In this document: positions 2,114 to 3,692 of the stretch, piece by piece
Numbering within the stretch: position 1 is the first letter of the stretch
Layout: every line of letters starts with the position of its first letter
IMG/VR virus record: IMGVR_UViG_3300009622_000013
Length of the DNA stretch: 6,817 bases
Source: a virus
Taxonomy: Duplodnaviria > Heunggongvirae > Uroviricota > Caudoviricetes
Strand: one strand, 5' to 3'
Notes under the pieces: model-generated
Databases searched by the model: none
Seen by the model: only the letters and a program-made list of their open reading frames with translations
What the model was told of the DNA's origin: nothing
Made by a program: the position numbers and the translations under genes

Positions 2114-2607
2114 TAAGCCCCCACGTAATTCCCTGAGAGATACCACTCTTCACCTGATGCAGCCCGCTTACTGCTTTTCCGTAAACACCGTTCACGACGC
2201 GCCAGAAAATTGTTTCGTTCTGGCTGGGAGTGGCTTTCACGGAATGCCGCCATCCACACCGTTGCAGCACGACGGTATAAGCCCCTGGACTCCAGTTCTT
2301 CCGCCTGGCGGGTCAGGCACAAAATCACCCGCGGGTCGTTAGTGCCGACATAGAAATTGCGCACAGGTCTGGTTTCACGAACTGGTTGTGGTTCCGGATC
2401 CTGCGCTCTCTCAGTCAGGCGCGGGAAATGTCTGTGTGTATCTCCTTCACAACGGTGAGCCACACGCCCACTCTGACGTAACTTGCTTGCTGACTGCAGA
2501 ACGCGCTGCCGTGAGTAACCTGCAAAAGCATCCGCAATGTCTCCGGAAGTACAGCCCGGATGGGCTTCAATGAATTTCTGAACGTCATTCAAAAGACTCA
2601 TGCTCAC
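2113..2607 (-). CDS. yfdN: Prophage regulatory protein, PerC-like C-terminal region (recollection)
   Basis: A 164-aa ORF starting at GTG 2605-2607, which overlaps the yfdO stop as GTGA; an in-frame ATG lies 2 codons downstream. The C-terminal region (LCLTRQAEELESRGLYRRAATVWMAAFRESHSQPERNNFLARRERCLRKSS) resembles PerC-type activators. It is arranged like an operon with yfdO and yfdM. Confidence 0.7.
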   Translation of the reverse strand: MSMSLLNDVQKFIEAHPGCTSGDIADAFAGYSRQRVLQSASKLRQSGRVAHRCEGDTHRHFPRLTERAQDPEPQPVRETRPVRNFYVGTNDPRVILCLTRQAEELESRGLYRRAATVWMAAFRESHSQPERNNFLARRERCLRKSSKRAASGEEWYLSGNYVGA

Positions 2608-2972
2608 CCCCTGAATCCTGCCGGGATCTGGCTGTAGTCCACATTGTCGTAACTGGCTTTGAAGTACGGGTCTTCGCGTTTTTCTGTGTACGTGCTGACG
2701 GACGGCGATAAGCGCAGGGAAAGCTCATCCCATTTTTCCCGCAGCTTCGACGGGCTGAGCACGTTACGGCACCAGAACGGATCGCGGCTGACGCGGCTGT
2801 ACATCTCGCAGATTTGTTTGTGAGTACGACCATCCTGCACACACATCAGGCGAATTTCGTTTGCCCAGGCTGTCCAGTTCGGTTCTTTGGGACGAACCAC
2901 CTCGCCGTCACATTCGGCGGCCTGCTCGTACAGGGCGATGATTTTTTTCCAGAGCCACTGTGCGCAGGTCAA
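2604..2972 (-). CDS. yfdO: Phage replication protein O-like remnant, 122 aa (defective replication initiator)
   Basis: The 122-aa ORF MTCAQWLWKKIIALYEQAAECDGEVVRPKEPNWTAWANEIRLMCVQDGRTHKQICEMY.. matches my recollection of K-12 YfdO, annotated as a defective O-like protein. The iteron array lies directly upstream. Confidence 0.65.
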   Translation of the reverse strand: MTCAQWLWKKIIALYEQAAECDGEVVRPKEPNWTAWANEIRLMCVQDGRTHKQICEMYSRVSRDPFWCRNVLSPSKLREKWDELSLRLSPSVSTYTEKREDPYFKASYDNVDYSQIPAGFRG

Positions 2973-3329
2973 ATCATCCTGCGTTCCCCACTGGCGCTTT
3001 TTAGGGCTGAATACAACCGCATCAGGATGGCGAGTTAAAAAATCCTGTTCATCCGTCTGCGTGTCCGGTTGCGAAGCGTCCGGACGAGAAGGTTTTTTAT
3101 CTGACGGATCATGTTTTGATTTTACTGACGGATCCCCGCCAGATTCTGACGGGTGAAAACCCGATTTTTTGCCAGATTTCGACGCATCAAATTTTGACGG
3201 GTCAGATTTTGATGCGTCAGATTTTGACGGGTCAGAGTCTGACAGTTGAGAAAATGCCGCTGCCTGAAGCTTCGCAACGTTAAGCTGATAAACATTCGAC
3301 GCATTGCGGTTATGATGAGGAGCAGCAAA
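2973..3329. promoter_or_regulatory. Divergent intergenic control region between yfdO (minus) and yfdP (plus); contains the iteron array and presumably divergent promoters
   Basis: A 357-bp non-coding gap between divergently oriented genes. GAGGAG sits 8 nt before the yfdP ATG at 3330. Exact -35/-10 elements could not be assigned with confidence by eye. Confidence 0.4.
3171..3245. repeat. Five tandem 15-bp iterons (consensus GTCAGATTTTGAYGS) with degenerate copies upstream from about 3100; putative ori or operator repeats
   Basis: Units read directly in register: 3171 GCCAGATTTCGACGC, 3186 ATCAAATTTTGACGG, 3201 GTCAGATTTTGATGC, 3216 GTCAGATTTTGACGG, 3231 GTCAGAGTCTGACAG. The last has internal dyad symmetry (GTCAGA-G-TCTGAC). 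Further TGACGG-containing copies occur at 3102, 3126 and 3147. Confidence 0.6.
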
Positions 3330-3692
3330 ATGGCTAGCGAACGCAGTACTGATGTGCAGGCATTTATCGGGGAGCTGGACGGCGGCGTATTTGAAACCAA
3401 AATCGGCGCAGTTCTCAGTGAAGTCGCTTCCGGTGTGATGAACACGAAAACCAAAGGTAAGGTCTCACTCAACCTGGAAATCGAACCATTTGATGAGAAC
3501 CGTCTGAAAATCAAACACAAACTCTCATATGTTCGCCCGACTAACCGTGGGAAAATTTCCGAAGAAGACACCACCGAAACGCCGATGTATGTCAATCGCG
3601 GTGGTCGCCTGACTATTCTGCAGGAAGACCAGGGACAATTACTGACTCTTGCCGGTGAGCCTGACGGAAAACTCCGCGCAGCAGGTCATTAA
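3330..3692 (+). CDS. yfdP: Prophage protein of unknown function, 120 aa
   Basis: ATG at 3330 is preceded by GAGGAG. The product MASERSTDVQAFIGELDGGVFETKIGAVLSEV.. is protein-like. The track ORF from 3246 adds 28 low-complexity residues upstream with no ribosome binding site. Sequence matches my recollection of K-12 YfdP. Confidence 0.7.
   Translation: MASERSTDVQAFIGELDGGVFETKIGAVLSEVASGVMNTKTKGKVSLNLEIEPFDENRLKIKHKLSYVRPTNRGKISEEDTTETPMYVNRGGRLTILQEDQGQLLTLAGEPDGKLRAAGH

Follow-up and report, generated by a model that had tools for sequence, protein, structure and literature searches.

The window analysed here, a stretch of 6,817 bp that makes up the right half of the cryptic prophage CPS-53 (KpLE1) of Escherichia coli K-12, contains an array of 15-bp tandem repeats upstream of yfdP. 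We consider it quite likely that these repeats are the initiator-binding iterons of a replication origin located inside an SfII-type, lambda-O-like initiator gene, that this origin has been orphaned in CPS-53 and that the array is now probably bound by the host regulator SrsR. What the prophage retains is most likely a fossil origin, possibly reused as a regulator-binding array; sequence comparison shows that the cis-acting repeats are intact (99% identical to those of functional phages) and that the cognate N-terminal domain (N-domain) of the initiator is deleted.

In the K-12 RefSeq annotation, yfdO comprises 122 codons (2604-2972) and yfdP begins at 3330, so that the 357 bp between them look intergenic. 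The array seems to belong to this spacer because only the last 122 codons of the O-like gene are kept as yfdO: on the minus strand, the yfdO frame runs without a stop from 3464 to 2604 and lacks any ATG, GTG or TTG before 2972, and the array sits inside the untranslatable 5′ part of that frame and not, as the original prediction had placed it, between an O remnant and yfdP. From 3312 down to 2604, the DNA shares 99.2% identity with nt 234-942 of a gene that measures 942 bp in phages SfII and SfIV, a segment that corresponds to codons 79-313 of 313; the same gene occurs in several E. coli phages at 98.4-99.3% identity to the 3312-2604 segment, under annotations such as 'O protein family', 'primosomal protein' and 'DNA replication protein O'. 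In K-12 derivatives, PGAP records 2604-3311 as a pseudogene ('helix-turn-helix domain-containing protein, missing N-terminus'). The earlier description of yfdO as a short O-like remnant was right about the kinship, but the 122 annotated residues are only the tail of a remnant of 235 codons. A Pfam search returned no match on the remnant alone and none on YfdO. The elements of the gene and of the array are as follows.

2604-3312, minus strand: 5′-truncated lambda-O-like initiator gene, equal to codons 79-313 of SfII gp41, with the array inside it and no start codon before the TTG at 2972.
2604-2972, minus strand: yfdO as annotated (b2358, 122 aa, TTG start), the C-terminal part of the O-like C-terminal domain (C-domain).
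3171-3245: five in-register 15-bp iterons, with cores at 3172-3182, 3187-3197, 3202-3212, 3217-3227 and 3232-3242 that read TCAGATTTTGA on the plus strand and TCAAAATCTGA in the sense of the gene.
3109-3149: two degenerate iteron cores, 3109-3119 (TCATGTTTTGA) and 3139-3149 (CCAGATTCTGA).

Tandem Repeats Finder reports the interval 3173-3236 with a period of 15 (4.3 copies, 81% matches) as well as a period of 30 (2.1 copies, 88%), and a repeat search returned copies in register spaced by 15, 15 and 15 bp, together with related copies at 3102-3120 and 3125-3154. The in-register 15-mers begin at 3171 (GCCAGATTTCGACGC), 3186 (ATCAAATTTTGACGG), 3201 (GTCAGATTTTGATGC), 3216 (GTCAGATTTTGACGG) and 3231 (GTCAGAGTCTGACAG). 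When the core TCAGATTTTGA was searched on both strands of the window with up to 2 mismatches, 11 matches were obtained, compared to 3.3 ± 1.9 in shuffled sequences; nine of these fall within 3109-3242, where they define seven sites (starting at 3109, 3139, 3172, 3187, 3202, 3217 and 3232), two of which also match on the other strand. The cores show GTCA-N5-TGAC dyad symmetry and five of the seven stand at exact 15-bp spacing; a lambdoid origin is expected to have at least four direct repeats that are internally dyad-symmetric. The search programs and the core count against shuffles thus bear out the five 15-bp repeats in register at 3171-3245 that the original prediction had read from the letters; its perfect dyad in the last repeat is the 13-bp, 6+1+6 palindrome GTCAGAGTCTGAC at 3231-3243, and the degenerate upstream copies that it mentioned are found as the cores at 3109 and 3139, both of which are kept in diverged Klebsiella, Citrobacter and Yersinia phages. 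Single-strand folding of the array is significant (z = −4.7), as expected of any array of dyad sites, and a search of Rfam at gathering thresholds gave no match anywhere in the window. On the minus strand, the iterons encode (S-K-S-D-P/A)n, that is, SDPSK/SDASK repeats. Two mechanically called open reading frames also cross the array (3116-3283 on the plus strand, 55 aa; 3122-3595 on the minus strand, 157 aa) and read as QILTG or RQNLT repeats; they are by-products of a repeat that is open in several frames, not genes.

The intact initiator, SfII gp41 (313 aa), consists of a Pfam HTH_36 winged helix at residues 23-70 (42.9 bits, cut-off 25) and a C-domain that begins near residue 166; over its whole length, the protein matches PHROG 391 'replication initiation O-like' (1e-135). 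Its residues 166-278 align with lambda O 171-271 with an hhalign probability of 99.4% (E 3e-21, 43% identity), and the N-domain of lambda O is of a different type, Pfam Phage_rep_O (PF04492), so that the homology to lambda O appears to be partial and to go by domain, including the C-domain but not the N-domain. A profile search of the PDB recovered only generic winged-helix regulators, at E 0.02 or worse, and NCBIfam gave helix-turn-helix matches below threshold only. The repeats lie inside the initiator reading frame between the HTH_36 and C-domains, with the cores spanning gene nt 304-437 of 942 in SfII, compared to nt 349-433 of 900 for the four annotated iterons of lambda. The alignment with lambdoid replication modules, which had been proposed as a check on the original prediction, therefore came out in its favour: the C-domain is homologous to that of lambda O, the repeats are colinear with ori-lambda, and the whole architecture follows that of lambda, with a DNA-binding N-domain, an iteron-bearing linker and a shared C-domain.

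This C-domain is found behind at least six types of N-domain, each of which is then followed, at the same place, by a direct-repeat family of its own.

SfII type (the array described here): 15-bp units. Erwinia: diverged 15/30-bp units.
mEp460: 23-bp units, CATCGGGTCAAAGTGACCTGATG. One Citrobacter locus: 23-bp units, AAACCAGAATGCGGAACC.
Another Citrobacter locus: 22-bp units, CCGCAGAATCGCGGAAC. Two Enterobacter loci: 21-24-bp units, GGTAGTGCAGGAGATTCACCAGG.

The four 21-24-bp families (mEp460, two Citrobacter, Enterobacter) are unrelated, and the similarity of mEp460 to the window resumes at 3100, where the array ends. Conversely, the SfII-type N-domain is accompanied by TCAAAATCTGA cores also when it is joined to two other C-domains, those of phiNP/LLS/YeP1 and of phiP27, which brings the number of C-domains to three. 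The iterons thus co-vary with the N-terminal and not the C-terminal domain of the initiator, both across the six pairs that share one C-domain and in the one pair that occurs with three. A scan of genome contigs for related loci yielded only 9.

In addition to this co-variation, the linker appears to be under constraint at the level of DNA. Among six lineages with an SfII-type N-domain, the fraction of same-amino-acid codons that are identical in DNA was 0.56-0.88 in the linker versus 0.31-0.51 in the N-domain in all 15 pairs, with a one-sided Fisher p < 0.05 in 13 of them (down to 6e-7), and amino-acid identity was lower in the linker. Between SfII and KpF5, agreement at the third position of such codons reaches 0.89 for the linker, compared to 0.50 for the N-domain and 0.53 for the C-domain (Fisher p = 4e-7). 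Phages from those of Shigella to those of Yersinia share the 11-nt core, and the 3-4-nt spacers vary freely; in the sequence logo, core columns were chosen by matching and spacer columns were not, so that the information content of the core is overstated. The linker of the intact gene carries 5-9 copies of the core at 15-bp spacing, and Klebsiella and E. coli phages differ in this number by whole units of 15 bp.

The loss of the initiator's DNA-binding domain can be traced to a single event, which also brought the array next to yfdP.

3311-3312: deletion junction with a 2-nt 'TA' microhomology; the O-like gene without codons 1-78 lies on its left, and on its right stands the sequence found 18 bp before the ATG of yfdP.
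3330-3692, plus strand: yfdP, the first gene of the early-left operon, placed next to the origin by the deletion.

Homology to the O-like gene ends at 3312, and from 3311 the sequence is the one found 18 bp upstream of the yfdP ATG in intact prophages. Relative to an intact prophage in which yfdRQP, ymfK-ymfT-ymfL, the O-like gene and yfdN stand together, CPS-53 is without 2807 bp (locus L026, 3348-6154), and this 2.8-kb deletion took the immunity region and the first 78 codons of the gene, with the winged-helix DNA-binding domain. The junction is present in 362 of 5426 complete E. coli genomes, with K-12-type strains only, most of them laboratory strains, among the matches listed; each of its halves is found separately in thousands of E. 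coli genomes, and the region of the O-like gene is apparently intact in about 1575 of the 5426. Among the matches listed, the array and the queried part of the C-domain occupy one place per genome in K-12, where the sole further fragment of the gene is the one in the e14 chimera YmfN (residues 1-78). No full-length cognate initiator is encoded alongside the array, codons 1-78 being deleted and a start codon lacking, and because the DNA-binding domain has gone the origin is orphaned and should be inert, that is, silent, in K-12.

Beyond the array in the sense of the gene lie two further elements that may belong to the origin.

3093-3135: AT-rich tract directly downstream (gene sense) of the iterons, with a 24-bp-spaced GATCCGTCAG repeat and GATC at 3107 and 3131.
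3063-3085: inverted repeat GTCCGG-N11-CCGGAC, which encodes S/C-P-D-A-S-Q-P-D and marks the point where homology among all N-domain types resumes.

The tract is a candidate DNA-unwinding element. Its A+T content over the 30-nt window 3093-3122 is 73%, compared to 47% for the whole gene, and a local A+T peak (60-73% over 30 nt) occurs at the same relative position in all eight of the eight genes examined, whatever their iteron type. GATC is 4.7-fold enriched in the tract (13 in 808 nt versus 24 in 6998 nt, counted over sequences that are not all independent), and many of these phages have a Dam methylase gene two genes downstream. The inverted repeat is conserved in DNA between initiators whose N-domains and iterons are unrelated; it may belong to the origin or may merely code for the conserved SxPDASQPD peptide.

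By analogy with lambda, the winged-helix N-domain of an intact phage initiator would bind the cores, probably as dimers on the GTCA-N5-TGAC dyads, and the bound initiator would wrap the DNA into a nucleoprotein structure of about 135 bp. The adjacent AT-rich, GATC-rich tract would then open, and the lambda-O-like C-domain would recruit the host replication machinery. In CPS-53, the 2.8-kb illegitimate deletion removed the immunity region and codons 1-78 and left the cis-acting array behind, setting it between two divergent transcription units, where SrsR could use the same cores as an activator site.

The resemblance to ori-lambda extends to the location of the origin midway along the initiator gene, where it separates an N-terminal DNA-binding domain from a C-terminal one, to the presence of several direct repeats, each with internal dyad symmetry, and of an AT-rich tract beyond them (a short one here), to the exchange of repeats and N-domain as one specificity module, and to the homology of the C-terminal domains. 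On the other hand, the core sequences are unrelated, seven cores face four in lambda, the N-domain belongs to HTH_36 instead of Phage_rep_O, a P gene is lacking, and truncation of the initiator in this window has orphaned the origin. The iteron origins of plasmids and of P1 (oriR) are initiator-binding repeat arrays beside an AT-rich region with Dam sites; by analogy, the arrangement described here likewise sets a repeat array beside an AT-rich, GATC-bearing region, but there is no homology and those origins do not lie within the coding sequence of the initiator.

Lambda has 4 iterons and Stx phages have 6 (PMC7466680). In the origins of Stx phages such as 933W and the one called P27 in that paper, the number of iterons varies and each extra iteron lengthens the linker of the initiator, just as 1-3 extra 15-bp units add 5-15 residues here; they differ from the present case in that their initiators are true lambda-O proteins (Phage_rep_O) for which binding and replication have been demonstrated, whereas the SfII-type origin is a proposed one.

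Several points weigh against the identification of the array as an origin. No experiment in the searched literature shows binding of an SfII-type initiator to these repeats, or replication supported by the region. The Pfam family of the SfII-type N-domain is not the Phage_rep_O family of lambda O; the 15-bp spacing, with its 30-bp super-period, departs from the 20-24 bp observed in lambda and in the other types; and the AT-rich tract is short, at about 30-40 bp. Moreover, no P-, DnaC- or DnaB-like gene follows the initiator in the SfII-type modules examined, leaving no apparent helicase loader: what comes after it in SfII, PhiR29_1, mEp460 and the Klebsiella phages is a gene for a PerC-like protein (YfdN), Dam methylase or RusA. 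Only phiP27, which combines the same N-domain and iterons with a different C-domain, encodes a DnaC-like loader among the modules examined (locus L024, 1986-2391). High synonymous identity in the linker could in principle reflect a recent exchange of linkers, a possibility that is disfavoured because non-synonymous changes are in excess there. As for the part played by SrsR, the footprint discussed below was made with 10-40 µM protein (PMC9181523), the list of YgfI sites obtained by chromatin immunoprecipitation with exonuclease digestion (ChIP-exo; glucose M9) names only dhaK and mdtL and no yfd gene, and another laboratory did not reproduce SrsR control of fucAO. On comparative evidence, the earlier idea of orphaned lambdoid iterons is nevertheless well supported, except that the iterons, as in lambda, lie inside O-like coding sequence and not in an intergenic region. 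It may be noted separately that the C-domain of the SfII-type initiator is a homologue of the P-binding half of lambda O, yet no P gene follows.

SrsR is the LysR-type host regulator YgfI, whose highest peak in genomic SELEX (systematic evolution of ligands by exponential enrichment) lies in the 'yfdO/yfdP spacer' (Int J Mol Sci 2022, PMC9181523). On this spacer, it forms several gel-shift complexes and a 66-bp DNase-I footprint with four boxes, TCAaATTTTGa, TCAGATTTTGa (twice) and TCAGAgTcTGa (PMC9181523). The boxes, as given in Table 1 of that paper, are the cores at 3187, 3202, 3217 and 3232 (window 3187-3242) and match the SrsR box TCAGATTTTGC. By quantitative reverse-transcription PCR, deletion of srsR lowers the mRNA of yfdO, yfdK and the yfdP operon and its overexpression raises it, the units affected being yfdONMLK and yfdPQ (PMC9181523). 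The DNA is thus identical to the array described here, but the paper handles the region as an intergenic operator, makes no mention of iterons or of a replication origin, and uses 'replication protein O' only as the description of yfdO in Table 1 (PMC9181523). Binding of SrsR to the array is likely in vitro and possible in vivo, and the fossil origin is probably now an activator-binding array for the divergent yfdONMLK and yfdPQ units, on the strength of literature from one laboratory, with which other data partly conflict. The alternative offered with the original prediction, operators controlling divergent yfdO and yfdP, accordingly has published experimental support from that laboratory (PMC9181523), although the binder is SrsR/YgfI and not YfdO or YfdN, and the site is missing from the YgfI ChIP-exo list. 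The target lists of the YgfI/SrsR/DhfA papers (PMC9181523, PMC8464067, PMC9068703, PMC11011485) do not overlap, and the genomic SELEX list ranks the CPS-53 array first.

The origin and operator readings are compatible, since one concerns ancestry and the other present use; what competes with the former is the stronger claim that the array is a transcriptional operator or enhancer, for SrsR or another protein, that was never an origin and lies in the O-like gene by chance. In its favour are the in vitro binding of SrsR, the shifts in yfdO, yfdK and yfdP mRNA upon srsR deletion or overexpression (PMC9181523) and the position of the array in K-12 between divergent transcription units. This divergent layout is, however, limited to the 362 genomes with the K-12-type deletion, whereas in intact phages the array lies some 300 nt into a gene that is expressed as part of the cro-side early operon; it is the initiator N-domain, not the flanking promoters, with which the repeats change; and YgfI was not detected at the array by ChIP-exo, all of which makes an operator without origin ancestry very improbable. 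We find it scarcely plausible that the repeats are simply the by-product of a low-complexity SDPSK/SDASK protein linker that changes by slippage and has no function at the DNA level. That the units measure exactly 5 codons, are in frame and vary in number by whole units would suit such a linker, but synonymous positions are far more conserved in it than in the flanking domains, and the peptide less so; what is conserved is the 11-nt core, which is partly dyad-symmetric and does not keep to the codon register, the P/A-codon spacers being free to vary; and unrelated N-domains are followed at the same place by unrelated 21-24-bp repeats, several with periods that are not multiples of 3.

A further rival accepts the origin but holds that it can still be fired or bound in trans, whether by an incoming or resident initiator of the SfII type or by YmfN, the e14 chimera described below, with local over-replication, titration of initiator or cross-prophage regulation as consequences. 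In favour of this, the cis element matches that of functional phages at 99% identity, an apparently intact copy of the gene region is carried by about 1575 of 5426 E. coli genomes, YmfN still scores as HTH_36 (42.2 bits), and a multicopy ectopic ori-lambda stops the growth of lambda (PMC4488673). YmfN is, however, without the C-domain and without NRNxSNxYxLN (residues 79-89, after the helix-turn-helix), the most conserved motif across N-domain types, and the CPS-53 site exists in one copy only, whereas plasmids were used to show the decoy effect for lambda; use in trans is accordingly very unlikely. Roughly one third of E. coli genomes carry the initiator family to which the iteron core belongs, and SrsR or YmfN might act on the origins of SfII-type phages or on the CPS-53 relic, with control of phage replication by the host, cross-talk of two cryptic prophages or a decoy for initiators as possible outcomes, an idea that we regard as improbable. 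An orphaned, fossil origin that SrsR probably now binds thus remains the preferred account of the array.

The missing N-terminal codons have a counterpart elsewhere in the K-12 chromosome. The pseudogene oweE of prophage e14 consists of nt 1-234 (codons 1-78) of the same O-like gene, identical to SfII at 230 of 234 positions, and forms YmfN through an in-frame fusion with a terminase fragment (NC_000913.3, 1204170-1204403; locus L025, 4671-4904); the e14 and CPS-53 fragments (codons 1-78 and 79-313) are complementary to within 0-1 nt. In strain N767, nt 1-237 are fused to a tail-fibre gene (locus L027, ~3101-3106), and in strain PEC41 nt 1-235 are joined upstream of a holin gene (locus L028, ~3100-3104); these two junctions cannot derive from each other or from e14. 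All four junctions, which are independent of one another, with terL, a tail-fibre gene, a holin-upstream and a yfdP-upstream sequence as partners, fall at nt 234-237 of the O-like gene (window 3309-3315 in CPS-53), within GGT/A/AC of its only GGTNACC site (nt 232-238), about 70 bp upstream of the first iteron, and the site is destroyed in all of them. An intact terL partner has GGTAACC 5 nt from the e14 junction (locus L029), and the yfdP-side partner is without a GGTNACC site. GGTNACC is a recognition site of the BstEII/EcoO65I type. The geometry would suit a restriction-type break rejoined through microhomology, and origin-associated breakage is another possibility; the sample of breakpoints is small and was found by looking at the O-like gene only.

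Two simpler schemes were rejected. One inversion between e14 and CPS-53, or an inversion and re-inversion, would need extra deletions ending at the same nucleotide to arrive at the present maps, and inversion models were dropped because independent strains share the breakpoint. Two GGTNACC cuts followed by ligation fail as well, the e14 junction being 9 nt short of the expected product and the yfdP-side partner having no site.

The 'intergenic region' between yfdO and yfdP of K-12 hence consists mostly of a replication initiator gene that has lost its 5′ part, and the SrsR boxes of the literature would be the iterons of that gene's internal origin. The 'SrsR box' consensus rests essentially on this phage-derived array, and the interpretation of the SrsR regulon is affected because the consensus derives essentially from a phage relic. 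The same comparison would define the origin of a very common family of temperate phages of enterobacteria (SfII, SfIV, e14-like and Klebsiella phages), in whose modules N-domain and iterons are paired in the style of lambda with an unusual 15-bp phasing. The identity of the repeats as origin iterons of an initiator with HTH_36 and lambda-O C-domains was not found in the searched papers; the SfIV genome paper has no word on an origin, and the Eru classification of Stx-phage replication modules does not cover the SfII-type module. The array DNA had already been published as SrsR boxes, the origin is of a well-known kind, and the rest is ordinary prophage decay; what deserves attention is that the top target of a host regulator is a fossil origin, that its iterons are phased at 15 bp and that the breakpoint recurs.

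The window carries on the minus strand yfdK, yfdL', yfdM, yfdN and yfdO and on the plus strand yfdP, yfdQ, yfdR, yfdS, yfdT and torI, with dsdC, also on the minus strand, at the right-hand end of the window. A promoter scan of the region gave one weak match on the plus strand (3289-3316) and none on the minus strand. This sole sigma-70-like match combines a TAACA-type −35 element (TAAACA), a 16-nt spacer and a −10 element TATGAT; the −10 hexamer straddles the deletion junction, so that the promoter, if used, would be a fusion created by the deletion, and as it would start transcription within the Shine-Dalgarno sequence of yfdP its relevance is doubtful. A second CPS-53 deletion junction lies at about 1843-1856, where homology to a phage Dam methylase, of whose gene yfdM is a 5′ fragment, ends at ~1847-1856 and is joined to the tail-fibre-related yfdL'; here too a GGTNACC sequence, GGTTACC at 1836-1842, lies 4-13 nt away.

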